The notes beneath the pieces were generated by a model that had not been told where the DNA came from, searched no databases, and was given only the letters and a program-made list of their open reading frames with translations. The position numbers and the translations under genes were made by a program. DNA of 64,000 nucleotides from contig JABVCE010000029.1 in the NCBI GenBank assembly GCA_014905635.1, positions 372,001 to 436,000 on the forward strand, given 5' to 3'. Every line of letters starts with the position of its first letter. Position 1 is the stretch's first letter. Below are positions 18,343-64,000 of the stretch, piece after piece. The DNA comes from Scenedesmus sp. PABB004. Taxonomy: Eukaryota.

Positions 18343-26663
<8,321 letters not shown>

Positions 26664-33871: not shown

Positions 33872-34957
33872 ATGGCCGTCATGATGCAGCGCAGCTCGGT
33901 GGCCGCGCGCCCCGGCCTGGCCCGCCCCGCGCGCAGCGTGGCCCGCCTGGCGGTCCGCGCCAGCGCCGACGAGGGCGAGGCGAAGACGGTGGTGCAGAAG
34001 CTGGCCGTGCCGCTGGCCACCATGGCCACCGCGACCGCGCTGCTGGGGAGCGCGATGGTGGCTCCCCCCGAGGCCCTCGCCGCCCGCAGCGGTGGCCGCG
34101 CCGGCGCCAGCGGCTTCTCGGCTCGCCGGGCGCAGTCCTTCGCGCCGTGAGTGGCCAGATCGGGCCGGGGGCGCGGGGACAGCGTGTGGTTGCTCCCGCT
34201 CCCAGGGCGTCTGCAGGACACCTGGGCGCGCAGGGCGGGCGCGCGTCCGCACCGGAGCCAGACCGCTGCTCGTGCCAGCGCCCCGGCAGCGCCGCGGCGC
34301 CCGCATGCACGGCGCCGCGGCAGCGGCGGCAGCAGTGGCAGCGGGCGCGTGGCGCGCCTCGAGGCGGGCGCCTCGCCCTCACCCCGCGCCGCCTCCGCCG
34401 CCTCCGCCTCCGCCGTTGTCGCAGGCGCGGCGGCGCCGTGCCGCGCGCCGCGCAGCGCAGCTACTCGACGACCAACGTCATCGTCGCGCCGCCCCTGTAC
34501 TCGCCGTTTGGCTTTGGCGGCTTTGGCTTTGGCGGCTTCATGCCCTTCCCCTTCTTCGGCGGCATGCTCCAGGCGCGCGCGCGGCGCGACGCCGCCGCGG
34601 CCGCGCCCCCGCCCGCCGCTCCGCACCCCGCCCCGCCGCGCCCGCGCACGTCGCCGTCCGCGCGCCTCACGCGCGTGCGTGCCCCCGTGCCCCTCCTCCC
34701 CTCATCCCCTCCGGTCTGCTCCCTCACCTCGCCTCACCTCGCCTCACCTCACCTCACCTCACCTCACCTCACCTCACCTCACCTCACCTCACCTCACCTC
34801 ACCTCACCTCACCTCACCTCACCTCACCTCACCTCACCCCACACAGTTCATGTTCCTCATGCTCGCCGTGAGCTTTGTCTTCAGCGTCGTCAAGGGCGCG
34901 ATCGGCGCCGCCAACGGCGCCGGCAAGAGCAAGAGCCAGGACTGGGACGACCTGTGA
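33872..34957 (+). CDS. Small Gly-rich plastid/thylakoid membrane protein (SGGR motif, like the DUF1517 N-terminus)
   Basis: Transit peptide plus a hydrophobic segment ending ALA-ARSGGRAGASGF, then NVIVAPPLYSPFGFGGFGFGG and a C-terminal TM helix ending DWDDL*. Confidence 0.65.
34723..34838 (+). repeat. (CTCAC)n pentanucleotide microsatellite at the 3' end of an intron
   Basis: More than 20 consecutive cctca/ctcac units ending just before the acag acceptor at about 34846. Confidence 0.95.
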
Positions 34958-44900: not shown

Positions 44901-47055
44901 CGCGTGCGCCGCAAACACCGGCGCCGCGACGCAGCCGACCTCCTTCGTGAACAGCGCCTCCTCGCCTGCGCCGACGGCGGCGGCGGCGGCCAGTCGGTCG
45001 CGGCCCTTGGCGCCATGCGAGGCTGCCGGGCCGGCCCTCCCACCACCCGCTGCGCACCGCACCAGGGAATGAGTAGGCCATGAAGCGGCTCTCGGGCGCC
45101 GCCTGCCCGCCCGCGCGCAGCGCCGCGCCGTCGGGCAGCGCGCTCGCGCTGTGCAGCGTGACGTCGATCACGTGCCGCACGCCCACAACCACGGACGCGG
45201 ACGCGGCAGCGGCGCCCGCAGCGCCGCCGCCCGCCGCGGGCGAGCTGGGCGGGCTGGCGGTCGGCGACGAGGCGGCGCGCAGCACGCGCGCCTCGAGCGC
45301 GCCGGCGGCGCGGCCGCGCAGGACGTCGTACAGCTCGAACGACCCCGCCGCAAAGCAGGGCTGCTCCCGCGCGGCGCCGGCGGCCGCCGCGGGCGTGCGC
45401 GGCTGCTGCAGGGGCAGGCGCGCGATGCCCAGCAGCTCGCAGTCGCCCCCGGCGGCGCCGCCCGGACGCCGGCCCGCCCACAGCTCGATCGCGAGGCAGG
45501 GCCTGTCGGCCGGCAGCAGCGGCCCCGCCAGGCAGGGCGGCCCGCTGACAATGGCGCTCACGGGCGCGCCGCCGCCGCCGCCCACGACCAGCAGCGCGCC
45601 CACGTCCAGCTCGCAGCAGGTCCGCCCGCCGGACTTGACCACAGCCGTGACGCCGGCGCCCGGCGCGGCGACGCCCGACACGCCCAGCAGCTCGACCTTC
45701 AGCAGCGCCGCCCCCTGGCCGTCAGGCGGCGCGGCGCCCGGTGCTCCGCGCCGCAGGCTCGCCGCCGCCGCGGCGGCCGCTGGGCTTGGCTGCTCGTGCT
45801 GCTTGCGCCGCCGCTCCTGCGACGCCGCGCGGCGCTCGCGCTGCCGCGCCGGGCTCGCCGCCGGCGAGCGCCCCGCGCGGGCGCGCAGCAGCTCCTGCAG
45901 CAGCAGGTCCTCCAACTCCTCCAGATCCTCCAGCTCGCTCACGCGGCTGCCGCCAGCGCTGCTGCCGCTGCTGCCGGCGGGACTGTCGGCGCCGGCCCCC
46001 CGCCAGCCCGCCGCCGGGTCGTCGCCGCCGGGCAGCAGCAGCTGCGGCAGCAGCGGCGGCAGGAGCGCTGCTGCCAGCGCCGACACGCCGTGCGGCTGCC
46101 AGAGGGCGGGTCCGCCGCTGGTGCCGCCCCAGGGCAGGCCGGCTGCGCCAGGCAGAGCGACGCTGACGCCACGCGCCGCGGCCCGGTCCATGGCCGCCTT
46201 GAGACCCTCCGCCCGGCGCACGATGTCGGCCAGCGGCTCACGGCGACCGCCAGGCGACGCCGGCGCCGCGGGCGCTGCTGCTGCGGGGTCTGCCAGCACA
46301 GGCGGGGCCGCCTGCTGCTGCTGCTGCTGCTGCTGCTGTCCCTGCAGCTGCGGCGGCTGCTGCTGCTGCTGCTGTTGCTGCATCGGCTGCTGGGCGGCGG
46401 GCTTTTTGAGGGCAGGCGACCCGCCGCCGCCTGCCGCCCCACCGGCATTCTCCTTGCCCGCCGCGCGCCCTGGCTGCTCGCCCGCCGCCGCCGGCGCAGC
46501 CCGCGGCGCCGGCGGCAGCGGCAGCTGCACGCCGCCGTCGGTGGTCGCGAGGTGCTCGCCGAGCTCGGACGCGCTGCCCGGCGCCGCGTAGTCCACGCAC
46601 ACGCGGACCGCCGCGGTCGCGACGCGCTGCCCCGCCGGCCCGCGCGCCGGCAGCGCCGCCTCGAGCGGCGCGCCCACGGCCAGGCGCGCCAGGTCGACCT
46701 CGACCGTCGCGACGGGCCGGCCGCTGGGGCAGGCCTCGAGCGCGAGGCGCAGCACGCCGGCGTCGCCGAGGTAGCGCGACAGCCCGCGCGGCCCCGCCGC
46801 GAGCGGGAACGCGGCGCCCGCGCCGCCGCGGCCGGGCGCAAAGGGCACCACCGTGTCGGCGTCGCAGCCCCACCAGCGCACGCGGAGCTGCAGCTGCGCC
46901 GGCGGGCGGCGCGCCGCTGCGCCGCCGGCCCAGTCGAGCGCTGTGACGAGCACGACCAGCTCCCCCTGCGCCGCGCCGCCCACGCCCGGCGGCAGGGAGT
47001 GCCCCGCGATGGCCACGTGCGGGGCGTCGCCGGCGGGCAGCCGGCGCGCCGCCAT
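38973..47055 (-). CDS. C2CD3: C2CD3-like multi-C2-domain centriolar protein; 3' end uncertain (39086 or 38973)
   Basis: N-terminal SLPPGVGG...LRVRWWG...LSRYLGDA motif typical of C2CD3, then several C2-like blocks (IELWA, LSVQIIRACGLQ, TFCPQFHH...VEVWH, LCVEGALNL...YVAYRW, LDGWHHI). Confidence 0.65.
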
Positions 47056-47659
47056 CGCCGCGCGGCGTTGTCGAGCGGGCGGCGCGCGTGCCGCTGCTGC
47101 GCCGCCGCCGCGGCGGGCGCTGGCGGCGAGGCGCCGATCGGCGCTGGCGCGCGTGCGTGCCGCAGGCGCTGCGTGAGCGGCTGCACAGCGGCCGGCGGGC
47201 GACAGGGGCGGCGGGGGAGGCCGGAGCAGCACAAAATCACGGCCGGCGCGACGAGGCACGCTCCAGCTCCGGCGCCGGTCTGGGCGGTTCAGTGCAGTCC
47301 GTGTGAAGCCCTGGGCGGCGGGCGGGGCTGGGGAGGGGCGGGACGCTTGGCCTCCCGCCTGCGCCCGGTGAGCCCCGGTCGCCGCGCCCCGGCGCCCCGC
47401 CGCGCGCGCTCCCCGTCACCGCCACAGCTCGCTCGCCACGCCACGGGCGACAGCAGCTCGCAGCCTGCACGCCGTCTGCTGCCGTGCGGTACGCAGCGGT
47501 AGGCGCCGCCCCGGCCTCAGGCCGCAGGTCCCGCCCCGCGTGGGTGGGCGTCGCGGCCGGGACCCGGCAGTCGGGCGCGCGCGCCAGCCGGGCGGGCGAC
47601 GCAGCGGGCGAGCAGCGGCGCGGCGAGCAGCGCGGCGAGCAGCGCCGACCGGCGCCGCC

Positions 47660-50600
47660 ATGGCCGCCACCGCGGGCTCCCTGGCCGCCGAGCTGGGCCT
47701 GGGCACCGAGCGCAGCGACGGTGAGCTCGGGCGGCCGTCGGCGCGGCGGCGCGCCGAAATGCGCGGCGGCGGCCGCGCAGCGCGCGCGCGCGTACTGCGC
47801 GCCGCCCGCCCACGCGCCGCCCGCCCGCCCACGCGCCGCCCGCCCGCCCGCGCGCCCGCCGGCCCCGTGTGCCCCACCCGCGCAGCCGGCGGCCTGCGCA
47901 GCAGCGGCGGCGCGCTGGCCGACAAGCTCGGCGGCGGCCGCTCGGCCGCGGGCTCGCCGCCGCCGGCGCCGGTCGCGCCGCCGGGCGCGCTGCTGCTCGT
48001 GACGACGGTCGACATCGGCGACGGCGCGAGCGACCGCATTGAGGTGCGCGAGGGCGACGTGCCACTGGAGGTGGCGGCCGCGTTCGTGGCCAAGCACGGC
48101 CTGCCCGAGGCCATCACGCCGCGCCTCGCGGTGCACCTGGAGGACAACCTCGCCAAGGTCGCCGCGCAAAAGGCGGCCGCGGCGGTGAGCCGCGCGCACG
48201 CGCACGCGGCGGCGGGCCCGCGGGCGGCCCCGGGCGGCCAGGGGGGAGGAGGGGGAGGAGGAGAGGGCCAGGGGCGCGGGCGGGCGCGCCGCCGGCGCCC
48301 GCGCCCACGCCCGCGCCCGCGCCCGCAGCTCGCCCGCGCGGCGGGCGACGCCGCGGCGGCCGAGGTCGAGGACGGCGAGGGGTGCGGCGCTGCCGCCGCC
48401 GCCGCCGCCAGCCCCGCACCGCGTGCACCGCGCCGCGCGACAGCTCGGGCCGTGCCCGCGCCGCCCCGGGCGCCTCACCCCCGGCCCTTGGCCCTCCCTC
48501 GCTCCCTCCCCCCCCCCCCCCCGCGCGCGGCGCAGGGCGGTCGTGTTCCACCGCCTGTACGAGCAGGCGGTCGCGCTGCGCGCCAAGCTCGACGCCAAGC
48601 GCAGCGCGCTCGAGGCGGACGAGGCCGCCGCGCTCGCGGCGCAGCGCCGGGGTATGAGCTGGATCTCCAGCGAGATGATGCGCGAGCGCTCGAGCGGGCC
48701 GTTTGGGAACTACGGCTCCATGCTCTACGCGGAGAGCATGGAGAGCGCCGCGCGGCGCAAGGACAAGGCGCGGCGCGCACGCAGCCGCGCCGCGCCGCGG
48801 CGGCCGCGCGCACGGCCGCGCCGCGCGGCGCCGCGCGGGCGCCGCGGCGCCCGGCTCACGCGCCCGGCCCGCCCGACCGACCGCGCGCATGTGCGCAGGC
48901 GGAGCGCGCGCGCGCCGAGCGCGCGGCGGAGGAGGTGTCTGGCGTGACGTTCAAGCCCGAGATCAGCCGCCTCGCGCAGCACCTGTGGAGCCCGCACGAC
49001 ATCGGCAGCGTGCCCGCCTGGCAGCGCCTCAGCAAGGGTGCGCGGCGGCCGCCCCCGCGCATGCGGCGCGGCGCGGCCGTCCCTGCGCGGCGCGGCGGCG
49101 GCCCCGCGACCCCGCGCCCGCGCGCCATGCCGCGCCGCAGCGAAAATGAGCAAGGCGCAGGAGCGGCTGGAGACGCTGCGCCGCGAGAAGGAGGAGGCGG
49201 AGGTGGCGGAGTGCACGTTCAAGCCCTCGCTCAACGGCCGCAGCCAGCGCCTCATGACCGAGCGCGCCGCGACGCTGCGCAGCCTCAACGTCTCCGCGCA
49301 CCAGCAGCTCTACCAGGACGCCGTGCGACGCCAGGCCAAGTGAGCGCCCGGGCCGCGTGGCGGCTCGGCGCCGCCGCGCAGCGCGCAACGCTGCCGCGCA
49401 CGCCCGACCCGCCGCGCCGCCCGTGCCCCGCCCCCTTCCCCGCCCCCGCAGGCAGGCCGACTACGCGCACTGGTACCCCGAGGAGGTTACCTTTGCGCCC
49501 AAGCTGCACGAGAGCGCCATGTCGCGCGCCTTCCTGCGCCGCAGCCTGGGCCCCGAGGGCGCGGCCGCGCTGTCCGCGCGCGGCGAGGAGCGGCACAAGG
49601 CCCTGGTGGACCGCCTCTACGCGAGCTATGACAAGGTGTGAGACACACCCGAGCGACCCCACACAGCGCGCGCAGCGCGCAGCGCGCAGCGCGCAGCGCG
49701 CAGCGCACAACAGGCCCTGGCCCCCCACGCGGCCGGCCGCGCGGCGGCGCGCGCGCGCCCGTCACTGACCCTGCGCTGCGCCGCGCCGCGCGCAGCTGCA
49801 GAACAAGCTGGCCGAGGCGCGCTCGACGCTGCAGACGGCGGTCGACCCTGCGACCGGGCGGCGCCTGTTCACGCCCGAGACGGGCCGCGCGCCGCACTTT
49901 GCGCGCAACGCGTCGGCGCTGCCCGTGGGCGAGTACTTGTACTCGCTCAGTGCGACGCACGCCGACAAGCTCGCGGCCGCGGCGGAGGACAAGGCGCGCC
50001 GCGCGGAGGCCGACGCGGCGCGCGTCAAGCACAACAGCAGCAGCGCCGCGCTCGTGCGCGCGCTGCAGACCAAGCGCTTCCGCCAGGCGCGTGCGCGCGC
50101 GCTTGCGCGCAGCGGGGCGCGAGGGCGGCGCGCGGCGCGCGGCGCTCCACCGCCCTCGCCCCCCGCGCCGCGCTCACGCCCCCTGGCCTCACGCCCCCGC
50201 ACCGCCCCCGCACCGCCCCCGCACCGCCCCCGCACCGCCCCCGCACCGCCCCCGCACCGCCCCTCCCCCCCACCTTCCCTCACCGCCGCCCAGATCTTTG
50301 ACTTCCTGGACCAGGAGGGCCTGGGCTGCGTGGACCTGGTGGACGTCATCGGCAGCGGCCCCGCCTGGCTGGACGACCTCGACGAGCAGGCGCGGCACGC
50401 GGCGCGCGCCGGCCAACCGGAGGGGGCGCCCGCGGCGCGGGGCGCTGCCCCCGCCAGCGCCGCCGCCGCGCGGCGCTCACGCGCGCCCGCGCGGGCGCCG
50501 CGCCGCCAGGTGCGCGCCGACCTGGAGCTTGCGGCCAAGCTGCTGGCGCGGCGCCGCCTCAAGCACAACGACAGCGGCGCGAGCGAGGCCTCCATCTCCA

Positions 50601-52202
50601 TGCCGCCGCCGCCGGCGCTCGGCGACGTGGCAGGCGCGCGCCCGCGCGCCGCGCGCGGCCGCGGCGCCGCGCCGCGCCGCGGCGCCGGCCCTCGCGGCGC
50701 CCGCGCGCGCGCCTCCCACCCCGCCCCGCGCGCGCGCGTGCCGGCCCGGCCCGCAGGCTGCGGCGCGCCGCGCGCCGGCAGCGCGCCCAGCACGCCGGGC
50801 GGGAGGGCGGGCGTGAGCTTTGGGTCCTTCTGCTCCCTCATGGCCGAGGTGCTCGCGGCGCGGCGCGGCCCGCGCGCCTACCTCGCGCCCTCGCCGCCGC
50901 GCACGTTTGTGCCGGCGGAGACGTTCCAGCCGACGATCACGCAGCGCTCCAAGCAGCTGGCCGCCAAGATCCGGCCCAAGGCGCGACGCGGCGCGGCGCG
51001 GCGCGGCCCCGCTGGCGGGCGGGCGCGCGCGCCGCGCGCACCGCCCCGCCCTGACCCCGCCCGCCCCGGCGCGCCGCCCGCGCACGCACAACCAAACGCG
51101 CCGCCGCCAGGACACGCCGCTGTTCGAGGCGCTGTACGCCGAGGGCGGCGCCATCCGCGCCAAGCTGAGCGAGAAGCGCGCGGCCGCCGAGGCGCAGGCC
51201 ACCAGCAGCTGCACCTTTGCGCCGCGCCTGGTGTCGCACCAGATGGTCAAGGAGGGCCGCGTCATGCGGGTGCGAGCGCGGGGGGCACGCGCGCCGCGAG
51301 CGGGGGCACGCGCCCCGCCGCGCGTCGCCGCGCCGCGCGGCGCCCGCGCGTCGCCGACCGCGCGCCGCGCGCGGCGCCCGCCCCGCCCCGCGCAGTCGGT
51401 GCGCGACGGCACGTGGAACACCAACAGCGCGGCCACCAGCAAGGGCGGCGCGCTGGACAGCGCCGACAGCCTGCAGGCGCTCGCGGCGCTCATGGCCGGC
51501 GGCGCGGAGCAGCGCCCCGCGGCGCAGCAGCCCGCGGCGGCGGCGGCTGCGGCGGCGGAGCGGCCGGCCGAGGCGCAGCGCCTGGCGGCCAAGGAGCTCA
51601 GCGCCCAGCTCGCGCGGCTGCAGGAGGCGCAGGACGCGGCCGAGGCGGCGGCGGCGGCCGAGGAGGCGGCAGGCGCGGAGGAGCGGCGCGCCGCGGCGGG
51701 CGAGGCGGGGTGCGACGCGGAGGCGGGCGAGGCGGGCGAGGCGGGCGAGGAGGACGACTTTGAGGGCAGCGAGGAGCAGCGCGCGTACCTGGAGCTGGAG
51801 GCGGAGGTGGCGCAGATGCTCGCCGCCACGAGCGCCGCGGCCGAGGCGGCGGAGCGCCTGCACAGCGCGAGCGACCAGCAGTACCTCAGCCAGATCCTGG
51901 GCCTGGCGCAGGAGCAGGTTGACGCGATGGCGCCCGCCATCTCCCAGCTGCAGGGCCTGCAGGTCGGCGGCCACAGCCGCACCGAGTCGTTCGCCTCCGA
52001 GGCGTCGCCCTCCGCCGCGGCGTCGGCCACAGGCGCCGCGGCGGGGCCCGGCGGCGCGCGCCGCGCCTGCAGCAGCAGCCCGCCCAAGAGCAGCGCAACG
52101 GCGGGCGCGGCGGCGGGCGGCGCGCGTGCCGTGCAGGCCTCGGCGGGCAAGGCGCCGCTGGACCTCTTCCAGCTGGCGGCGGGCGTGGAGGGCAGCAGCT
52201 GA
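47660..52202 (+). CDS. Uncharacterised multi-exon protein with repeated (C)TFxPxI/L motifs, an EF-hand-like segment and coiled coils
   Basis: N-terminal VDIGDGASDRIEVREGDVPLEVAAAFVAKHGL, motifs VTFKPEI, CTFKPSL, VTFAPKL, LFTPET, TFQPTI and CTFAPRL, RLY motifs, and IFDFLDQEGLGCVDL. Exon phases are consistent. Confidence 0.75.
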
Positions 52203-52611
52203 GCCGGGTGCTGTCGCGGCCAGGTGCTGTCGCGGCCAGCGCGGTGCTCGTCTTGGGGTGCTGCGGGGCATTGCTGGAGCGGTGATCACAACAAGAGCAG
52301 AAGGGTGGCTGGGGGGCGACCCTAAAAGAGCTATGCACGTGACGTGTGCGTGTGTGGACGGCTGCCTGCGTGCCCGAGCTGCTGCGCCCCTGCGCTTGCC
52401 GTCGGCAGACCGCTGACGGCAGGATTCGCGACGACGCCCTAGTTGGGGGCGTCAGATTTCATGGCCAGCTGCTGCAGGGCAGCGAGAACAGGTCTAGAGC
52501 CATCGCAAGCAAAGTGCGGCGGCGCAGGGTAAGGTGCTGGTCAATCAGATCCGGCAGGCGCGCAGCACCCTCGCCGCGCAGCACCCTCGGCACGCAGCAC
52601 CCTCGGCGCAT

Positions 52612-52726
52612 AGCGCCGCCCGCGCGCGCGCTGCTCGGCGGCGCCGCGGCGCAGCGCTGCCGGGCGCCGTTCCCCTAGCCCCGCCGCCCCTGCGCAGCGG
52701 AGGTGCGCGGCTGCAAGGTGCTGCCC
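52612..52726 (+). repeat. Partial, slightly diverged monomer of the 172-bp satellite at the gene/repeat boundary
   Basis: Matches the second half of the monomer (...gccgttcccctagccccgccgcccctgcgcagcggaggtgcgcggctgcaaggtgctgccc). Preceded by three 16-bp cgcagcaccctcg units at 52561-52608. Confidence 0.85.
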
Positions 52727-52729
52727 AGC

Positions 52730-54789
52730 GGCGAGCTTCTTCGAGATGGGGCCTGACAGCAGGCTCCGCACCGCCGAGCCCCCGCCCGAGATAGTCGCGG
52801 CGGGGGGGGGTGGGAGGACTGCTGCGTGGTGGACGCGGCGCAGGCGCCGCGGCCAGCGGCGGGCGCGCAGCGCGCGGCGGCCGGAGCGCCCGGTGCAGCG
52901 GCGCCGGCGGAGCAGCCGGAGATGCACAGCAGGGCGCGGCGATGGTGCCTCGTGGGCTTCTGGCCTGACGTCCGCGTCGACCCCTCCGTGTGGGGGCTTG
53001 GGCACGCGGCCACGGTCATGCAGTTTACGGTGCGCGGCGCGACCCTGCGGCTGCTGCAGCTGCGCTGCGCGCGCGAGGTCACGCCGGCAGGGGGCTGGAC
53101 GCCCGGCGTTGGCTGCGTGCCGGGCCTCTGGCGCGCCGGCTACGGCCAGGCCTGCCCGGCCAGCGCCATCGCGCGGCGGGAGGCGGGCCAGAAGCGCAGC
53201 TGGGCGGAGCGGCAGCGAGCCGAGACGCCAGACCCGGAGCCTGGGCTGCCGGCGTGGCAGAAAGTCTCGCCCCCGCGGCGCCACGTCATGGAGCGCGTCG
53301 GGCCGGCGGCGGCCGCTGCCGCCGCGGCGCGGCGCGAGGAGCATGAGCAGCGGCGGGAGCAGCAGCTGGAGCAGCGCAGGACCCTGGTTCAGGAGCCGGC
53401 GGCCAACGACCTCGTCGACCCGCTCACTGGTGCGACTGCGCCGCCGCGCGCCGGCGAGCGCGCGGAGCCGCCCGCCTGGGCCGCCTGCTACGCGCGCGCG
53501 CAGCAGGCGCGCATGCCGCGCGCCCTGCGACACTTTGGCTGGAGCCTGCTGCACGGCGGGGTGCGCGTCAGCGGCGACAGGGTCTTCTCTTACCAGCGCG
53601 CGGCGCCGGAGCTGGCGGAGCTGGCGTGCCCGCACCCGCTCTGCCGCGCGCAGCAGCAGCCGCCGCTGGAGACGCTCGGCCACGTCCTCGGCGGATGCCC
53701 CGTGGCGGCGGCGGTGCTGCAGTGGTTTGCTCACCTCTGGGCGCGGCTGCAGCCGGGCTTCCCGCGCGCGCCGCCCCCGCCCAGGGTGATGCTGGCGGAC
53801 GACTTTGCCAGGTCGGGCGTCGCGCCGGAGCTGCAGCAGCTCTGGACGCACCTCCGCCTGCTGCTGCTGCGCGCCCTGCTTGCCGCGCGCGCGCGGCACG
53901 GCGGCGGCCAGCCCGGGCACGCGCCTGCGGCGGCGATTCGCATCTTTGTGTACTCGGTGCGCGACGCAGTTGTGCTGGACTGGCGCAAGGCAGCGATGGA
54001 TGTGCGCGCGCTGGCGGGCGTGCCGCGCTCCTGGCTGTCGGGCTCCGGCAAGGAGCTCACTCGGGCAGGTTTCGAACGCCGGTGGTGCCACCGAGGGGTC
54101 ATCGCGCGCACGGGCCAGCACGGGGGCCGCTTCACAATGGAGTTCCGGCTCACCGCAGCGGGCGTGCCGGCGCTGCCGGCGGCGCCGGCGCTGGCCCCGC
54201 CGGCGGCGCAGGACCCCGTGGCGGCGGCGGCGGCGGCGGCGGCGGCGCAGCGCGGCGGCTAGCTGCAGGGGCCGGGGGGGGTCCGCGGCCGGGCTTGCTG
54301 CGACCCCGGCTGGCTGCGTGTCGCGCCTCTTCTGCAACGTGCAAGGTTGGGCGGTGTCCGCCCGTGCCGCGGGGCTGGTGTCTGCGTGTTTGTCGTCGCG
54401 CGGCGAGGGGGCTGCAGCCGATGGGGCCGGCCCCATCCGCCGCCAGCGTGGATGGCGTTTGCGCGTGATCTCTGCGCGGAGGCTTGGGGCCGGTGCACCT
54501 CGCTGCACCGATGCCCGGTGCGGCTCGCCGCACCGGAAGGGGGGTGTGCGGCCTGATCTGCTGCTGCCCCTTTGATTGCGGGGCATCACCTGGTCTCCTT
54601 GGGCGCCCGTTGGGCGTTGGCCTCTGGCTGTGCCGTTGGGTGATGTGTGGGCCCCCTCTCGGGGGGCGCCGGGGCGCGGTTTTTCACGAGGGGTTGCTGC
54701 GCTCTTCCCGTTGGAGCTTTTTTCAGTGGGCTGCCCCTGGGCCTCGGTCCTTGTCTGGTCACCCGTTGTAACAAAAAAAAAAAAAAAAA
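52730..54789 (+). mobile_element. 5'-truncated L1-clade non-LTR retrotransposon, copy 1 (ORF2 3' part, 3'UTR, poly(A))
   Basis: ORF 52826-54262 has a zf-RVT-type CCHC knuckle (FGWSLLHG...CPHPLC...ETLGHVLGGC). Then a 0.5-kb UTR, TGTAA at 54767 and an A-tract at 54773-54789. No RT or endonuclease domain is present. Confidence 0.85.
52826..54262 (+). pseudogene. C-terminal fragment of LINE ORF2 (zf-RVT region)
   Basis: 478-aa open frame with the CCHC motif. It extends upstream as ASFFEMGPDSRLRTAEPPPEIVAAGGWEDCC if the G-run at 52802 has 7 G, as in copy 2. Confidence 0.75.
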
Positions 54790-55056
54790 CCCAACGGCAC
54801 AGCCAGAGGCCAACGCCCAACGGGCGCCCAAGGAGACCAGGTGATGCCCCGCAATCAAAGGGGCAGCAGCAGATCAGGCCGCACACCCCCCTTCCGGTGC
54901 GGCGAGCCGCACCGGGCATCGGTGCAGCGAGGTGCACCGGCTCCAAGCCTCCGCGCAGAGATCACGCGCAAACGCCATCCACGCTGGCGGCGGCAGGGGC
55001 CGGCCTCAGCGGCATCAGCCCCCGCGCCGCGCGACGACACACGCACCCACCAGGGG

Positions 55057-55442
55057 ATAAAGATAAAGATAAAGATAGTTACACCACAGGCTCGCGCCCA
55101 TTGGTCCCGCGCCCCTTAAGGACGGTGTCCCGCATCTTCCAGATGTCCATCACATAATCTGCCACAGAGTGAACATCAAGCTGATCCTGCAGCAGGTCAC
55201 CAAGCAGATAACGCCGAGCCTGCTCCAGTGCTGCACACCGACTCGCCGGGCCGGTAACGGCAGCCCGAGGGGCCGCCGCACCAGCAGAGACGCTGCTGAC
55301 GCTGACCGCCGCGCTGACATCATCAGCCCGAGGGGCCGCCGTATCAGCCGTGACGCCGCTATCGCTGATGCTGACCGCCGCGCCTGCGTCAGCAGCCCGA
55401 GGGGCCGCCGCGCTAGCCACGACGCCGGGGTCGCTGACGCTG
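55057..55442 (-). mobile_element. 5'-truncated fragment of a second non-LTR family (RTEX/CR1-like C-terminus) with a (CTTTAT)n tail
   Basis: 7-bp TSD CCAGGGG at 55050-55056 and 55443-55449; empty site at about 57201-57215. ORF end ...LLQDQLDVHSVADYVMDIWKMRDTVL...VV* is followed by ctat(ctttat)3. Confidence 0.75.
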
Positions 55443-55636
55443 CCAGGGGGCAGCAGTTGGCTTTGCTGCAAAAACCCCTGAGAAAGCCGCGCACCGATGA
55501 GAAAGCCGCCCCACCGGGCAGGCAGCACGCCAAGCCGCCGCGCACGGAGCGCGTGCAGCCGCCAAACACGCCGGCGGCGCCAGGGGCCGGCCCCATCGGC
55601 TGCAGCCCCCTCGCCGCGCGACGACAAACACGCAGA

Positions 55637-56967
55637 GGCGAGCTTCTTCGAGGTGGGGCCTGACAGCAGGCTCCGCACCGCCGAGCCCCCGCCGAGATAG
55701 TCGCGGCGGGGGGGTGGGAGGACTGCTGCGTGGTGGACGCGGCGCAGGCGCCGCGGCCAGCGGCGGGCGCGCAGCGCGCGGCGGCCGGAGCGCCCGGGGC
55801 AGCGGCGCCGGCGGAGCAGCCGGAGATGCACAGCAGGGCGCGGCGATGGTGCCTCGTGGGCTTCTGGCCTGACGTCCGCGTCGACCCCTCCGTGTGGGGC
55901 TTGGGCACGCGGCCACGGTCATGCAGTTTACGGTGCGCGGCGCGACCCTGCGGCTGCTGCAGCTGCGCTGCGCGCGCGAGGTCACGCCGGCAGGGGGCTG
56001 GACGCCCGGCGTTGGCTGCGTGCCGGGCCTCTGGCGCGCCGGCTACGGCCAGGCCTGCCCGGCCAGCGCCATCGCGCGGCGGGAGGCGGGCCAGAAGCGC
56101 AGCTGGGCGGTGCGGCAGCGCGCCGAGACGCCAGACCCGGAGCCTGGGCTGCCGGCGTGGCAGAAAGTCTCGCCCCCGCGGCGCCACGTCATGGAGCGCG
56201 TCGGGCCGGCGGCGGCCGCTGCCGCCGCGGCGCGGCGCGAGGAGCATGAGCAGCGGCGGGAGCAGCAGCTGCAGCAGCGCAGGACCCTGGTTCAGGAGCC
56301 GGCGGCCAACGACCTCGTCGACCCGCTCACTGGTGCGACTGCGCCGCCGCGCGCCGGCGAGCGCGCGGAGCCGCCCGCCTGGGCCGCCTGCTACGCGCGC
56401 GCGCAGCAGGCGCGCATTTTTTTTTATTTATTATTTTTTTTTTTTGTTACAATGGGTGACCAGACAAGGACCGAGGCCCATGGGCAGCCCATTGAAAAAA
56501 GCTCCAACGGGAAGAGCGCAGCAACCCCTCGTGAAAAACCGCGCCCCGGCGCCCCCCGAGAGGGGGCACACACATCACCCAACGGCACAGCCAGAGGCCA
56601 ACGCCCAACGGGCGCCCAAGGAGACCAGGTGATGCCCCGCAATCAAAGGGGCAGCAGCAGATCAGGCCGCACACCCCCCTTCCGGTGCGGCGAGCCGCAC
56701 CGGGCATCGGTGCAGCGAGGTGCACCGGCCCCAAGCCTCCGCGCAGAGATCACGCGCAAACGCCATCCACGCCGGCGGCGGCAGGGGCCGGCCTCAGCGG
56801 CATCAGCCCCCGCGCCGCGCGACGACCGACACGCAGACACCAGCCCCGCGGCATGGGCGGACACCGCCCAACCTTGCACGCTGCAGAAGAGGCGCGACAC
56901 GCAGCCATCCGGGGTCGCAGCAAGCCCGGCCGCGGACCCCCCGGCCCCTGCAGCTAGCCGCCGCGCT

Positions 56968-56998
<31 letters not shown>

Positions 56999-57620
56999 GG
57001 GGTCCTGCGCCGCCGGCGGGGCCAGCGCCGGCGCCGCCGGCAGCGCCGGCACGCCCGCTGCGGTGAGCCGGAACTCCATTGTGAAGCGGCCCCCGTGCTG
57101 GCCCGTGCGCGCGATGACCCCTCGGTGCTGCCTGCCCGGTGGGGCGGTGTTCTCATCGGTGCGCGGCTTTCTCAGGGGTTTTTGCAGCAAAGCCAACTGT
57201 TGCCCCCTGGTGTGTGCGTGTGTCGTCGCGCGGCGCGGGGGCTGATGCCGCTGAGGCCGGCCCCTGCCGCCGCCAGCGTGGATGGCGTTTGCGCGTGATC
57301 TCTGCGCGAAGGCTTGGAGCCGGTGCACCTCGCTGCACCGATGCCCGGTGCGGCTCGCCGCACCGGAAGGGGGGTGTGCGGCCTGATCTGCTGCTGCCCC
57401 TTTGATTGCGGGGCATCACCTGGTCTCCTTGGGCGCCCGTTGGGCGTTGGCCTCTGGCTGTGCCGTTGGGTGATGTGTGGGCCCCCTCTCGGGGGGCGCC
57501 GGGGCGCGGTTTTTCACGAGGGGTTGCTGCGCTCTTCCCGTTGGAGCTTTTTTCAATGGGCTGCCCATGGGCCTCGGTCCTTGTCTGGTCACCCATTGTA
57601 ACAAAAAAAAAAAAAAAAAA
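55637..57620 (+). mobile_element. L1-clade copy 2, 5'-truncated, internally interrupted and deleted
   Basis: 55637-56416 is near-identical to 52730-53513; UTR and poly(A) lie at 57127-57620. Flanked by the 12-bp TSD CAAACACGCAGA (55625-55636 and 57621-57632). Confidence 0.85.
56417..57127 (-). mobile_element. L1-clade copy 3, antisense 0.7-kb 3' fragment inside copy 2
   Basis: Poly(T) at 56417-56445, then GTTACA and the reverse complement of about 54089-54771. No TSD; host sequence is deleted at the site. Confidence 0.85.
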
Positions 57621-57674
57621 CAAACACGCAGACACCAGCCCCGCGGCACGGGGGGACACCGCCCAACCTTGCAC

Positions 57675-59380
57675 GCGGCTCCAAGGTGCTGCCCGGCCAC
57701 GGGCTGCGCCGCCGAGCGCCGCCGCCGGCGGCCGCGCCGCGCCGCGGGCCGCGCGCCGCCCGCGCGCGCGCCGCTCGGCGGCGCCGCGGCGCAGCGCTGC
57801 CGGGCGCCGTTCCCCCTGCCCCGCCGCCCCTGCGCAGCGGAGGTGCGCGGCTGCAAGGTGCTGCCCGGCCACGGGCTGCGCCGCCGAGCGCCGCCGCTGG
57901 TGGCCGCGTCGCGCCGCGGGCCGCGCGCCGCCCGCGCGCGCGCCGCTCGGCGGCGCCGCGGCGCAGCGCTGCCGGGCGCCGTTCCCCCTGCCCCGCCGCC
58001 CCTGCGCAGCGGAGGTGCGCGGCTCCAAGGTGCTGCCCGGCCACGGGCTGCGCCGCCGAGCGCCGCCGCCGGCGGCCGCGCCGCGCCGCGGGCCGCGCGC
58101 CGCCCGCGCGCGCGCCGCTCGGCGGCGCCGCGGCGCAGCGCTGCCGGGCGCCGTTCCCCCTGCCCCGCCGCCCCTGCGCAGCGGAGGTGCGCGGCTGCAA
58201 GGTGCTGCCCGGCCACGGGCTGCGCCGCCGAGCGCCGCCGCCGGCGGCCGCGCCGCGCCGCGGGCCGCGCGCCGCCCGCGCGCGCGCCGCTCGGCGGCGC
58301 CGCGGCGCAGCGCTGCCGGGCGCCGTTCCCCCTGCCCCGCCGCCCCTGCGCAGCGGAGGTGCGCGGCTCCAAGGTGCTGCCCGGCCACGGGCTGCGCCGC
58401 CGAGCGCCGCCGCCGGCGGCCGCGCCGCGCCGCGGGCCGCGCGCCGCCCGCGCGCGCGCCGCTCGGCGGCGCCGCGGCGCAGCGCTGCCGGGCGCCGTTC
58501 CCCCTGCCCCGCCGCCCCTGCGCAGCGGAGGTGCGCGGCTCCAAGGTGCTGCCCGGCCACGGGCTGCGCCGCCGAGCGCCGCCGCCGGCGGCCGCGCCGC
58601 GCCGCGGGCCGCGCGCCGCCCGCGCGCGCGCCGCTCGGCGGCGCCGCGGCGCAGCGCTGCCGGGCGCCGTTCCCCCTGCCCCGCCGCCCCTGCGCAGCGG
58701 AGGTGCACGGCTGCAAGGTGCTGCCCGGCCACGGGCTGCGCCGCCGAGCGCCGCCGCCGGCGGCCGCGCCGCGCCGCGGGCCGCGCGCCGCCCGCGCGCG
58801 CGCCGCTCGGCGGCGCCGCGGCGCAGCGCTGCCGGGCGCCGTTCCCCCTGCCCCGCCGCCCCTGCGCAGCGGAGGTGCGCGGCTGCAAGGTGCTGCCCGG
58901 CCACGGGCTGCGCCGCCGAGCGCCGCCGCCGGCGGCCGCGCCGCGCCGCGGGCCGCGCGCGCCGCGCGCGCGCGCCGCTCGGCGGCGCCGCGGCGCAGCG
59001 CTGCCGGGCGCCGTTCCCCCTGCCCCGCCGCCCCTGCGCAGCGGAGGTGCGCGGCTGCAAGGTGCTGCCCGGCCACGGGCTGCGCCGCCGAGCGCCGCCG
59101 CCGGCGGCCGCGCCGCGCCGCGGGCCGCGCGCCGCCCGCGCGCGCGCCGCTCGGCGGCGCCGCGGCGCAGCGCTGCCGGGCGCCGTTCCCCCTGCCCCGC
59201 CGCCCCTGCGCAGCGGAGGTGCGCGGCTGCAAGGTGCTGCCCGGCCACGGGCTGCGCCGCCGAGCGCCGCCGCCGGCGGCCGCGCCGCGCCGCGGGCCGC
59301 GCGCCGCCCGCGCGCGCGCCGCTCGGCGGCGCCGCGGCGCAGCGCTGCCGGGCGCCGTTCCCCTGCCCCGCCGCCCCTGC
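57675..59380 (+). repeat. 172-bp GC-rich satellite, array 1 (about 10 monomers)
   Basis: The marker caaggtgctgccc recurs at 57682, 57854, 58026, 58198, 58370, 58542, 58714, 58886, 59058 and 59230, an exact 172-bp spacing. Confidence 0.97.
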
Positions 59381-60074
59381 GGCGTGTTTGGCGGCTGCGC
59401 GCGCTCCGTGCGCGGCGGCTTGGCGTGCTGCCTGCCCGGTGGGGCGGTGTTCTCATCGGTGCGCGGCTTTCTCAGGGGTTTTTGCAGCAAAGCCAACTGT
59501 TGCCCCCTGGTGTGTGCGTGTGTCGTCGCGCGGCGCGGGGGCTGATGCCGCTGAGGCCGGCCCCTGCCGCCGCCAGCGTGGATGGCGTTTGCGCGTGATC
59601 TCTGCGCGGAGGCTTGGGGCCGGTGCACCTCGCTGCACCGATGCCCGGTGCGGCTCGCCGCACCGGTAGGGGGGTGTGCGGCCTGATCTGCTTTTTTTTT
59701 TTTTTTTTTTTTGGTTACAATGGGTGACCAGACAAGGACCGAGGCCCATGGGCAGCCCATTGAAAAAAGCTCCAACGGGAAGAGCGCAGCAACCCCTCGT
59801 GAAAAACCGCGCCCCGGCGCCCCCCGAGAGGCCCCCCTGATCTGCTGCTGCCCCTTTGATTGCGGGGCATCACCTGGTCTCCTTGGGCGCCCGTTGGGCG
59901 TTGGCCTCTGGCTGTGCCGTTGGGTGATGTGTGGGCCCCCTCTCGGGGGGCGCCGGGGCGCGGTTTTTCACGAGGGGTTGCTGCGCTCTTCCCGTTGGAG
60001 TTTTTTTTCAGTGGGCTGCCCCTGGGCCTCGGTCCTTGTCTGGTCACCCATTGTAACAAAAAAAAAAAAAAAAA
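59381..60074 (+). mobile_element. LINE 3'UTR plus poly(A), carrying an antisense 144-bp 3'-end insertion (59692-59835)
   Basis: UTR sequence, TGTAA and A-tract. The insert is poly(T) plus the reverse-complemented 3' end, with TSD CCTGATCTGC (59682-59691 and 59836-59845). Confidence 0.88.
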
Positions 60075-60126
60075 CAAACACGCAGACACCAGCCCCGCGG
60101 CACGGGGGGACCGCCCAACCTTGCAC

Positions 60127-61140
60127 GCGGCTCCAAGGTGCTGCCCGGCCACGGGCTGCGCCGCCGAGCGCCGCCGCCGGCGGCCGCGCCGCGCCGCGGG
60201 CCGCGCGCCGCCGCGCGCGCGCGCCGCTCGGCGGCGCCGCGGCGCAGCGCTGCCGGGCGCCGTTCCCCCTGCCCCGCCGCCCCTGCGCAGCGGAGGTGCG
60301 CGGCTGCAAGGTGCTGCCCGGCCACGGGCTGCGCCGCCGAGCGCCGCCGCTGGCGGCCGCGTCGCGCCGCGGGCCGCGCGCCGCCCGCGCGCGCGCCGCT
60401 CGGCGGCGCCGCGGCGCAGCGCTGCCGGGCGCCGTTCCCCCTGCCCCGCCGCCTGCGCAGCGGAGGTGCGCGGCTCCAAGGTGCTGCCCGGCCACGGGCT
60501 GCGCCGCCGAGCGCCGCCGCCGGCGGCCGCGCCGCGCCGCGGGCCGCGCGCCGCCGCGCGCGCGCCGCTCGGCGGCGCCGCGGCGCAGCGCTGCCGGGCG
60601 CCGTTCCCCCTGCCCCGCCGCCCCTGCGCAGCGGAGGTGCGCGGCTCCAAGGTGCTGCCCGGCCACGGGCTGCGCCGCCGAGCGCCGCGCCGGCGGCCGC
60701 GCCGCGCCGCGGGCCGCGCGCCGCCGCGCGCGCGCCGCTCGGCGGCGCCGCGGCGCAGCGCTGCCGGGCGCCGTTCCCCCTGCCCCGCCGCCCCTGCGCA
60801 GCGGAGGTGCGCGGCTGCAAGGTGCTGCCCGGCCACGGGCTGCGCCGCCGAGCGCCGCCGCCGGCGGCCGCGCCGCGCCGCGGGCCGCGCGCCGCCCGCG
60901 CGCACGCCGCTCGGCGGCGCCGCGGCGCAGCGCTGCCGGGCGCCGTTCCCCCTGCCCCGCCGCCCCTGCGCAGCGGAGGTGCGCGGCTGCAAGGTGCTGC
61001 CCGGCCACGGGCTGCGCCGCCGAGCGCCGCCGCCGGCGGCCGCGCCGCGCCGCGGGCCGCGCGCCGCCCGCGCGCGCGCCGCTCGGCGGCGCCGCGGCGC
61101 AGCGCTGCCGGGCGCCGTTCCCCCTGCCCGCCGCCCCTGC
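60127..61140 (+). repeat. 172-bp satellite, array 2 (about 6 monomers)
   Basis: Marker at 60134, 60307, 60477, 60648, 60818 and 60990. Confidence 0.95.
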
Positions 61141-61828
61141 GGCGTGTTTGGCGGCTGCGCGCGCTCCGTGCGCGGCGGCTTGGCGTGCTGCCTGCCCGGT
61201 GGGGCGGTGTTCTCATCGGTGCGCGGCTTTCTCAGGGGTTTTTGCAGCAAAGCCAACTGTTGCCCCCTGGTGTGTGCGTGTGTCGTCGCGCGGCGCGGGG
61301 GCTGATGCCGCTGAGGCCGGCCCCTGCCGCCGCCAGCGTGGATGGCGTTTGCGCGTGATCTCTGCGCGGAGGCTTGGGGCCGGTGCACCTCGCTGCACCG
61401 ATGCCCGGTGCGGCTCGCCGCACCGGTAGGGGGGTGTGCGGCCTGATCTGCTTTTTTTTTTTTTTTTTTTGGTTACAATGGGTGACCAGACAAGGACCGA
61501 GGCCCATGGGCAGCCCATTGAAAAAAGCTCCAACGGGAAGAGCGCAGCAACCCCTCGTGAAAAACCGCGCCCCGGCGCCCCCCGAGAGGCCCCCCTGATC
61601 TGCTGCTGCCCCTTTGATTGCGGGGCATCACCTGGTCTCCTTGGGCGCCCGTTGGGCGTTGGCCTCTGGCTGTGCCGTTGGGTGATGTGTGGGCCCCCTC
61701 GGGGGGCGCCGGGGCGCGGTTTTTCACGAGGGGTTGCTGCGCTCTTCCCGTTGGAGTTTTTTTCAGTGGGCTGCCCCTGGGCCTCGGTCCTTGTCTGGTC
61801 ACCCATTGTAAAAAAAAAAAAAAAAAAA
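61141..61828 (+). mobile_element. LINE 3'UTR plus poly(A) with the same antisense insertion (61452-61593)
   Basis: Near-identical to 59381-60074, including TSD CCTGATCTGC and the caccggTagg variant. Confidence 0.88.
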
Positions 61829-61882
61829 CAAACACGCAGACACCAGCCCCGCGGCACGGGGGGACACCGCCCAACCTTGCAC

Positions 61883-63413
61883 GCGGCTCCAAGGTGCTGC
61901 CCGGCCACGGGCTGCGCCGCCGAGCGCCGCCGCCGGCGGCCGCGCCGCGCCGCGGGCCGCGCGCCGCCGCGCGCGCGCGCCGCTCGGCGGCGCCGCGGCG
62001 CAGCGCTGCCGGGCGCCGTTCCCCCTGCCCCGCCGCCCCTGCGCAGCGGAGGTGCGCGGCTGCAAGGTGCTGCCCGGCCACGGGCTGCGCCGCCGAGCGC
62101 CGCCGCTGGCGGCCGCGTCGCGCCGCGGGCCGCGCGCCGCCCGCGCGCGCGCCGCTCGGCGGCGCCGCGGCGCAGCGCTGCCGGGCGCCGTTCCCCCTGC
62201 CCCGCCGCCCCTGCGCAGCGGAGGTGCGCGGCTCCAAGGTGCTGCCCGGCCACGGGCTGCGCCGCCGAGCGCCGCCGCCGGCGGCCGCGCCGCGCCGCGG
62301 GCCGCGCGCCGCCCGCGCGCGCGCCGCTCGGCGGCGCCGCGGCGCAGCGCTGCCGGGCGCCGTTCCCCTGCCCCGCCGCCCCTGCGCAGCGGAGGTGCGC
62401 GGCTCCAAGGTGCTGCCCGGCCACGGGCTGCGCCGCCGAGCGCCGCCGCCGGCGGCCGCGCCGCGCCGCGGGCCGCGCGCCGCCCGCGCGCGCCGCTCGG
62501 CGGCGCCGCGGCGCAGCGCTGCCGGGCGCCGTTCCCCCTGCCCCGCCGCCCCTGCGCAGCGGAGGTGCGCGGCTGCAAGGTGCTGCCCGGCCACGGGCTG
62601 CGCCGCCGAGCGCCGCCGCCGGCGGCCGCGCCGCGCCGCGGGCCGCGCGCCGCCCGCGCGCGCGCCGCTCGGCGGCGCCGCGGCGCAGCGCTGCCGGGCG
62701 CCGTTCCCCCTGCCCCGCCGCCCCTGCGCAGCGGAGGTGCGCGGCTGCAAGGTGCTGCCCGGCCACGGGCTGCGCCGCCGAGCGCCGCCGCCGGCGGCCG
62801 CGCCGCGCCGCGGGCCGCGCGCCGCCCGCGCGCGCGCCGCTCGGCGGCGCCGCGGCGCAGCGCTGCCGGGCGCCGTTCCCCCTGCCCCGCCGCCCCTGCG
62901 CAGCGGAGGTGCGCGGCTCCAAGGTGCTGCCCGGCCACGGGCTGCGCCGCCGAGCGCCGCCGCCGGCGGCCGCGCCGCGCCGCGGGCCGCGCGCCGCCCG
63001 CGCGCGCGCCGCTCGGCGGCGCCGCGGCGCAGCGCTGCCGGGCGCCGTTCCCCCTGCCCCGCCGCCCCTGCGCAGCGGAGGTGCGCGGCTGCAAGGTGCT
63101 GCCCGGCCACGGGCTGCGCCGCCGAGCGCCGCCGCCGGCGGCCGCGCCGCGCCGCGGGCGCGCGCCGCCCGCGCGCGCGCCGCTCGGCGGCGCCGCGGCG
63201 CAGCGCTGCCGGGCGCCGTTCCCCCTGCCCCGCCGCCCCTGCGCAGCGGAGGTGCGCGGCTGCAAGGTGCTGCCCGGCCACGGGCTGCGCCGCCGAGCGC
63301 CGCCGCCGGCGGCCGCGCCGCGCCGCGGGCCGCGCGCCGCCCGCGCGCGCGCCGCTCGGCGGCGCCGCGGCGCAGCGCTGCCGGGCGCCGTTCCCCTGCC
63401 CCGCCGCCCCTGC
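61883..63413 (+). repeat. 172-bp satellite, array 3 (about 9 monomers)
   Basis: Marker at 61890, 62063, 62235, 62406, 62576, 62748, 62920, 63092 and 63263. Confidence 0.95.
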
Positions 63414-63780
63414 GGCGTGTTTGGCGGCTGCGCGCGCTCCGTGCGCGGCGGCTTGGCGTGCTGCCTGCCCGGTGGGGCGGTGTTCTCATCGGTGCGCGGC
63501 TTTCTCAGGGGTTTTTGCAGCAAAGCCAACTGTTGCCCCCTGGTGTGTGCGTGTGTCGTCGCGCGGCGCGGGGGCTGATGCCGCTGAGGCCGGCCCCTGC
63601 CGCCGCCAGCGTGGATGGCGTTTGCGCGTGATCTCTGCGCGGAGGCTTGGGGCCGGTGCACCTCGCTGCACCGATGCCCGGTGCGGCTCGCCGCACCGGA
63701 AGGGGGGTGTGCGGCCTGATCTGCTGCTGCCCCTTTGATTGCGGGGCATCACCTGGTCTCCTTGGGCGCCCGTTGGGCGT
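63414..63780 (+). mobile_element. LINE 3'UTR copy without the antisense insertion, interrupted at 63781
   Basis: Empty site gcctgatctgctgctg at about 63714-63729. Similarity to the UTR ends at ...gttgggcgt(tgg). Confidence 0.85.
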
Positions 63781-64000
63781 TGGTCTTGGTCGGAGTAGGC
63801 GCGGTTGTTGCCGGCTAGAGGAGCGAGTCGACAACGGCGGAGAGCGGCGGTTGGCCAACGAGAGAGCACGGAGAGCACGGAGACACGAGTGAAGGAGCAA
63901 AGGTTACATGTGCGTGGTGAAGAGACTCCTTAGGCAAACGGGGCGGGCGCACGGAGCTATATAGCCGAAACGGTATCGGTAATCGCAGCTTCTCGGCGGC
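63781..64000 (-). mobile_element. Probable LTR end (3' or solo LTR) of an LTR retrotransposon; runs off the window
   Basis: Abrupt switch to lower-GC unrelated sequence beginning TG. Read on the minus strand: CTATATAG (63957-63964), then TGTAA (63908-63904), then the terminus ...AAGACCA, which is U3-R-U5 order. Confidence 0.5.

Follow-up and report, generated by a model that had tools for sequence, protein, structure and literature searches.

The last ~11.4 kb (positions 52,613-64,000) of a 64,000-nucleotide window from the green alga Scenedesmus sp. PABB004 (assembly GCA_014905635.1, contig JABVCE010000029.1, positions 372,001 to 436,000) form an island of retroelements and satellite DNA. 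This tail is a candidate for the edge of a larger island that is part of its chromosome's centromere, and the chances of that reading seem about even. Two families of long interspersed nuclear elements (LINEs), here called LINE-A and LINE-B, occur in the tail together with a 172-bp satellite. On many contigs, LINE-A, LINE-B and a Ty1/Copia element again occur mixed together in compact groups, in a genome otherwise nearly free of repeats (39.8 Mb, 77 contigs, 78.5% guanine plus cytosine [GC], 7,092 genes, 1.31% repeats; PMC12571836). The same compact-group pattern marks centromeres in related algae, which makes a centromere the best single explanation.

The switch from gene arm to repeats is abrupt, as the original prediction claimed. 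The first 52 kb encode ordinary eukaryotic proteins (SRP72, ABC transporter, WD40, and pieces of C2CD3 by Pfam), and host genes stop near 52.2 kb. Neither LINE-A nor satellite occurs before 52.6 kb apart from low complexity; a BLAST comparison of LINE-A with the whole window found only short low-complexity matches before 52,726. When 52,613-64,000 was tiled with four references (LINE-A, T2, LINE-B, and satellite), LINE-A covered 50.7%; the satellite, 38.4%; T2, a variant piece of the LINE-A 3' untranslated region (UTR), 5.1%; the LINE-B end, 3.4%; and a diverged LINE piece, 0.5%. The remaining 1.9% matched nothing in this library. GC content runs at 72-83% along the window, and Rfam and transfer RNA scans found no RNA genes in the tail.

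One annotated protein model, P0002 (HT031_006103, KAF8057295.1), crosses the boundary. By tblastn it is a chimera, in which the host exons at 47,885-52,184 are mis-spliced to a LINE frame at 52,835-54,259. (Further public models are chimeric as well, combining genes, Copia, LINE, and satellite: P0001, P0003, P0006, P0134, and P0138.) At the other end, the repeats fill the tail as originally delimited, but the island does not stop with the window. The Copia model P0125 (KAF8057297.1) lies on the same 448,327-bp contig, two accession numbers past P0002 and outside the window, so the island runs on beyond 64,000. The unmatched last stretch probably represents the start of the next element, which may be tied to that Copia.

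Judging from its predicted domains, LINE-A is L1/Tx1-like and encodes both an APE endonuclease and a reverse transcriptase (RT). The RT domain (PF00078) is present in all seven long LINE-A-bearing models scanned, and Pfam detects APE in one of them, P0138. P0005, read directly, starts within the last part of an APE domain and has a CCHC motif near its carboxyl terminus; the second open reading frame (ORF2) of copy A likewise carries CX4CX12HX4C. The best match in the PDB is human LINE-1 ORF2p (E 4e-23 to 1.9e-22), with R2 at 4e-9 or weaker. The combination of APE, RT, and the LINE-1 ORF2p match supports the label L1-type. The expectation of a single such family thus stands as to its L1-like character (APE, RT, CCHC, and ORF2p match) and falls as to number: two LINE families are present.

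The 501-residue frame of copy A (52,757-54,259) has matches in six annotated PABB004 proteins, with P0002 identical throughout (100%), and LINE models of the same genome match 83-95% of this frame at 84-100% identity. The carboxyl-terminal frame matched no Pfam family. P0133, at 2308 amino acids, adds a long amino-terminal part to LINE-A. Among the 120 of 284 matches listed, the nearest relatives are metagenome proteins of ~1,600 amino acids with 52-58% identity, containing APE, RT, and in some cases zf-RVT; the closest stand alone on metagenome contigs of 4-7 kb, from which no context was gained. On three other metagenome contigs of ~52% GC (L032:12413-17221, L067:2118-3839, and L068:1215-2936), LINE relatives (41-55% amino acid identity, partial matches) sit beside arrays of a 144-bp tandem repeat, all of one family; this is another example of a LINE next to a repeat close to nucleosome length.

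LINE-A is nested within itself, as originally noted and as is known for Zepp. All four independent LINE-A 3' junctions (54,789; 56,418-56,427; 57,619-57,620; and 59,692) sit within LINE-A. Copy A's poly-A runs up against fragment D (reference position 1916), and the poly-T of copy C against copy B (position 789); the poly-A at 57,619 meets a LINE-A fragment at position 1668. The nested 136-bp minus-strand copy (59,693-59,835) has the 10-bp target-site duplication CCTGATCTGC on both flanks. Nine of the 11 LINE-A pieces in the tail consist of 3'UTR positions only.

Copies A (52,726) and B (55,633) begin at the same element position, give or take ~3 bases, and their upstream flanks differ (satellite versus LINE 3'UTR). 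Because they share a 5' end, these copies probably are duplicates, not separate insertions. The shared start may reflect segmental duplication or a preferred truncation point.

The satellite has a period of 172 bp over 57,674-63,414 (Tandem Repeats Finder), within the nucleosome-length range of 150-180 bp and in agreement with the original prediction. The program's own description (32.9 copies, 77% matches) spans two LINE interruptions; in reality there are 25 monomers, grouped into three blocks (10, 6, and 9) and spaced at 170-173 bp according to a 12-base anchor. This anchor occurs 26 times in the window, always at or beyond 52,715: 25 times in the blocks, and once in a partial monomer at the left island edge. 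Any two of the 25 block monomers share 93-100% identity, with the minimum reached in pairs that include a block's final monomer, truncated at position 162. With these final monomers set aside, identity among the remaining 22 is 96-100% (also given as 97-100%). Monomer GC content is 89.5%, and the satellite totals 4.4 kb here.

The blocks do not make up a plain array. They are instead parts of a composite unit of 1.76-2.3 kb, repeated in tandem: a 56-bp minus-strand LINE-A fragment; 6-10 monomers; and then, joined at monomer position 162, T2 and a LINE-A 3' end. Satellite blocks and LINE pieces have been amplified jointly. The same nested insertion is found in two of the four T2-LINE ends and is absent from the other two, which indicates that the unit duplications took place at different times. 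LINE-A 5' ends adjoin the satellite at two element positions: at 52,725/52,726, and at the satellite-T2 junction.

Two simple origins for the satellite were considered and rejected. As to derivation from LINE-A, tblastn with LINE-A ORF2 models (amino acids ~1-1326) finds no satellite match; a 77% DNA match between the satellite and LINE positions 1445-1532 is GC-rich low complexity, also seen in ordinary genes. Nor is the satellite a constant component within a LINE variant: it joins LINE-A at differing positions in the window and on a second contig, and it joins LINE-B in a metagenome contig. The second contig, of 38 kb, is where residues ~283-530 of P0138 translate at least four diverged monomers (76-89% identity over 27-58 amino acids, best tblastn E 5e-17), flanked by a Copia pol end on one side and a LINE-A copy on the other.

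LINE-B is represented in the tail by a 3' end whose last 122 codons are 98% identical to the carboxyl terminus of P0165, and also 98% to P0168 and P0170. Its tail is (GATAAA)3 on the plus strand (55,056-55,077), not poly-A. The end itself matched no Pfam family and had no match in the ESM Atlas. All three long LINE-B models (P0165, P0168, and P0169) contain APE, RT, and a Tudor-like domain (PF21743; 31.6-31.9 bits, cut-off 27.2), which sits upstream of the endonuclease. Such a chromatin-reader domain, predicted from the protein models, could guide the choice of integration site, and it offers a testable handle on how the element might find the chromatin of such islands.

The third family, Ty1/Copia, is exemplified by P0125, an uninterrupted polyprotein of 1,376 amino acids with complete gag, protease, integrase, and RT. 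Copies on at least 11 contigs are 96-99.7% identical as proteins. With one intact member and near-identical copies, this Copia looks recently active.

How far these families spread was judged from annotated proteins only, and one protein cluster was listed for 15 of its 20 members, so the contig counts are minimum values. LINE-A is on at least 14 contigs. Twelve were found through long matches (1,269,045; 448,327; 1,304,822; 784,350; 4,853,734; 795,618; 87,414; 19,129; 304,485; 1,005,304; 38,216; and 504,318 bp) and two through short stretches: the carboxyl terminus of P0126, on a 733,712-bp contig, reads through poly-T and a LINE end, and the first 56 amino acids of P0165, on a 1,843,548-bp contig, match the LINE-A frame. 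LINE-B is on at least five contigs. Taken together, LINE-A, LINE-B, and Copia reach at least 20 of the 77 contigs, at least nine of which carry two or more families. Confinement to this one locus, which would have counted against a centromere, thus does not apply to the LINE; a satellite variant also has its second contig.

The models cluster. On each of the seven contigs with two or more models listed, no two accession numbers are more than 4 apart, and they form a single group; close accession numbers would correspond to gene adjacency. (Locating the islands within their contigs from accession and locus-tag numbers was dropped, as the spacing is irregular, at 2.2-3.6 accessions per locus tag.) Chimeric models on other contigs show LINE inserted in LINE, LINE in Copia, and the order Copia-satellite-LINE: P0134 comprises Copia and LINE-A; P0138, Copia, satellite, and LINE-A; and P0170 adjoins P0134. 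Copia and more than one LINE family therefore share compact islands, as they do at the centromeres of Chlorella.

Features of the tail and of the last host gene (window coordinates; LINE-A positions in brackets are those of the reference copy)
Feature	Position	Strand	Remarks
Final host gene, exons	47,885-52,184	+	tblastn of P0002 / HT031_006103 on the window; genuine part of the model
Partial satellite monomer, 113 bp	52,613-52,725	+	monomer positions 81-172 plus first 22 bases of the next; 97% to reference; left island edge
LINE-A copy A, 5'-truncated	52,726-54,789	+	last 501 amino acids of ORF2 at 52,757-54,262, 3'UTR, poly-A at ~54,770-54,789
LINE-A fragment D (1650-1916)	54,789-55,053	-	95.5% identity; adjoins copy A poly-A
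LINE-B 3' end, 388 bp	55,056-55,442	-	last ~100-120 codons, stop codon, tail
T2 (131 bp), then diverged LINE-A 3'UTR stretch	55,443-55,632	-	
LINE-A copy B (1-789)	55,633-56,417	+	98.7% to copy A; interrupted at 789 by copy C
LINE-A copy C (1364-2064)	56,418-57,127	-	poly-T at 56,418-56,446; sits within copy B
T2 and LINE-A 3' end (1650-2064) with poly-A	57,125-57,619	+	without nested copy
LINE-A fragment, 56 bp (1613-1668)	57,620-57,675	-	between poly-A and satellite; again at 60,074-60,127 and 61,828-61,883
Satellite block 1, 10 monomers of 172 bp	57,674-59,381	+	ends at monomer position 162
T2 and LINE-A 3' end	59,380-60,074	+	nested minus-strand LINE-A 3' end at 59,693-59,835 (poly-T first)
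Satellite block 2, 6 monomers	60,126-61,141	+	
T2 and LINE-A 3' end	61,140-61,828	+	same nested copy; duplicate of 59,380-60,074
Satellite block 3, 9 monomers	61,882-63,414	+	
T2 and LINE-A 3' end (1650-1902)	63,413-63,789	+	no nested copy; ends abruptly at 63,789
Stretch without match	63,790-64,000	.	no match to the LINE-A, T2, LINE-B, and satellite library nor to the proteins compared

Islands of this kind serve as centromeres, or putative ones, in several green algae. Each Coccomyxa chromosome has one nested Zepp cluster of 1.5-42 kb, with no tandem satellite in or near it in the account available (PMC3446292). Chlamydomonas centromeres consist of ZeppL (PMC8226300), and the ZeppL clusters bind CENH3 (10.1101/2025.03.28.645958). 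LINE-A shares the anatomy of these elements: it is an L1-like LINE with poly-A, often 5'-truncated, inserted into earlier copies, and present mostly as 3' ends. The islands are also compact and lie directly beside genes, and the island size here falls within the Zepp range. This likeness is one of anatomy. Unlike Zepp and ZeppL, LINE-A shares its island with LINE-B and Copia, and satellite makes up 38% of the tail, whereas none was found in Zepp clusters.

Chlorella centromeres are reported to contain Copia, L1, and RTE-X without tandem satellites, and CENH3 chromatin immunoprecipitation confirmed them in C. sorokiniana; Chromochloris zofingiensis, in the same order as Scenedesmus (Sphaeropleales), has putative centromeres of Copia type (PMC11005252). 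The PABB004 island resembles these in mixing Copia with two LINE families, and in belonging to a green alga whose genome is small and dense in genes. It differs from Chlorella in having a satellite.

Satellite centromeres with embedded retroelements provide another precedent, among them plant centromeric satellites with CR elements and, in Drosophila, the Jockey-3 islands. Here the likeness lies in the nucleosome-length monomer, in the retroelements within and beside the array, and in the higher-order repeat. The differences are that the arrays are tiny (6-10 monomers per block, 25 in total), that monomer GC content is 89.5%, and that the blocks are co-amplified with LINE pieces.

For the family Scenedesmaceae, the only mention of a centromere found in the literature is in one figure legend of the preprint on S. 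obliquus UTEX 3031, whose available text names the centromere just that once (10.1101/2022.11.30.518549). The literature search found no paper describing centromeres in strain PABB004, and PMC13315243 mentions neither centromere, satellite, nor Zepp in its accessible text. The original statement that no centromere is described in this lineage is therefore right only in rough terms, given that one mention in the family and the putative centromeres of Chromochloris in the order.

Could the island instead be a mere refuge for retroelements? In a gene-dense genome, only insertions into older repeats would survive, so that elements pile up in a few places, forming a "safe haven" or heterochromatic knob that has no kinetochore role, while the centromere is at a different site or belongs to a different type. 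Selection against genic insertions explains the nesting and the co-location of three families equally well. The near-identity of the Copia proteins (96-99.7%), together with an apparently empty site in a wild relative (described below), also speaks for recent activity rather than an old, fixed structure, and the island is known here by its sequence alone. Nevertheless, where such islands have been tested among the compact green-algal genomes considered here, in Chlorella sorokiniana (PMC11005252) and Chlamydomonas (10.1101/2025.03.28.645958), both with CENH3, they coincide with centromeres. Moreover, survival alone leaves unexplained the single group on each of the seven multi-model contigs listed. 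A refuge without centromere function is accordingly the strongest competitor, though a rather doubtful one.

Several observations weigh against a centromere. The satellite is short here and appears elsewhere on one other contig only, in diverged form and by way of a predicted splice. Its translations (both strands, by alignment) matched no protein of 302-963 amino acids at E <= 1e-10, a weak negative as the 8000 low-complexity candidates may crowd out true matches, and an exact 24-base satellite motif had 0 matches in metagenome contigs of the Joint Genome Institute (JGI). Nucleosome-length arrays need not be centromeric: a 184-bp array on Chlamydomonas chromosome 11 extends over hundreds of kb and is catalogued separately from the centromeres (10.1101/2025.03.28.645958). 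CpG observed/expected ratios are alike in repeats (1.03-1.23) and genes (1.17), and the sequence thus bears no trace of special chromatin. The contig counts depend on gene models that chance to run through repeats, and accession order is taken as gene order. Finally, the 20 or more element-bearing contigs may signify more islands than chromosomes. The proposal of a hybrid LINE-plus-satellite centromere hence draws support from the anatomy, the spread over many contigs, and the grouped models, and is weakened on the side of the satellite, with its 4.4 kb co-amplified with LINE pieces.

Tandem composite units of satellite and element are typical of subtelomeres, as in those of Chlamydomonas. The tail might accordingly be a cluster of LINE and satellite near a chromosome end, the setting in which Zepp was first described on chromosome I of Chlorella/Coccomyxa. 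Two Coccomyxa chromosomes do carry subtelomeric Zepp clusters (PMC3446292), a further point against equating such clusters with centromeres, and both the view of the island and the telomere scan end at 64,000. Within the window, however, a search for the telomere-type sequence CCCTAAACCCTAAA with up to 2 mismatches gave four matches, all at 24-29 kb in the gene arm and none at 52.6-64 kb. The original prediction had named a telomere array beside the repeats as a sign against itself; the tail has none. In addition, at least ~4 kb of Copia coding region follow beyond the window on the 448-kb contig. A subtelomeric position is therefore unlikely.

Metagenome DNA bears on the structure of the tail. 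Parts of the stretch occur in 17 listed sequencing runs, all of DNA and kept as contigs, nearly all metagenomes and mostly from freshwater; none of these 17 contains half of the sampled words, and no RNA run is among them. Contigs were aligned to 44,001-57,680 only, the satellite part being too repetitive. At 95-99% identity, LINE-A, the T2 junction, and the LINE-B end all recur in contigs from four runs, one from each of four studies. X1 and X4 contigs join 54,487 to 57,125, and T2 therefore belongs to a variant of the LINE-A 3'UTR. One X1 contig joins LINE-A position 54,201 to 55,056. In one X6 contig, the satellite at 52,712 is followed, after five other letters, by the LINE-B tail at 55,059, with LINE-A copies A and D missing; this junction is read as an empty site and as indicating that insertion into the A/T-rich tail was recent. 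(The depth of a satellite contig in X6, ~71 versus 2-5 for LINE contigs, is a hint only: depths are contig means summed over organisms, and were not used as copy numbers.)

These contigs also address whether the order of parts is real. Units of 1.8-2.3 kb that are nearly identical pose difficulties for assembly, and the satellite part is too repetitive for the placement of reads, so repeats could have been collapsed or mis-joined. Against this, the independent contigs reproduce the LINE-A, T2, and LINE-B junctions; the target-site duplications and the clean poly-A junctions bear the mark of biological processes; and junctions of the same kinds recur in models on other contigs. An assembly artefact is thus highly improbable.

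The structure has built up by insertion and duplication. LINE-A inserts by target-primed reverse transcription, leaving 5'-truncated copies with poly-A, and lands repeatedly in its own earlier copies, in further elements within the island, and next to satellite monomers. The composite unit was then duplicated in tandem by unequal exchange. If the island is indeed centromeric, each chromosome would have one such island carrying CENH3 nucleosomes, as do the Zepp, ZeppL, and Copia/L1/RTE-X islands elsewhere. Presumably, the elements either aim at the chromatin of the island or survive only there.

A bolder and distinctly tentative proposal is that PABB004 has regional centromeres of a composite type new to green algae. 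There would be one island per chromosome, with four components interleaved and co-amplified: a self-targeting L1/Tx1-like LINE; a LINE with a Tudor-like domain; a young Ty1/Copia; and, as landing pad, a 172-bp satellite of 89.5% GC. If so, this would be the first satellite-bearing centromere of a green alga, and possibly a living intermediate between retroelement and satellite centromeres. As far as the accessible literature goes, green-algal centromeres so far are retroelement islands without satellites, and those of plants and animals mostly satellites with embedded retroelements. One hypothesis holds that satellites arise from retroelement-rich centromeres (restated in PMC11005252), and a satellite co-amplified with self-targeting LINEs would be a concrete place to test it. 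The islands are also small enough for assembly and engineering, in a genome of 39.8 Mb with ~1.3% repeats. If they are not centromeres, the finding becomes an ordinary retroelement refuge.

The gene arm contains some simple repeats of its own. The telomere-type matches include a run of CCCTAAA and variants such as CCCTTAA at 24,176-24,241, with single matches near 25.7 and 28.4 kb; this run may resemble the telo-box motifs of plant promoters. Two clean microsatellites are also present: (CTGAGCC)20 at 19,639-19,778, and (CCTCA)24 at 34,722-34,842.

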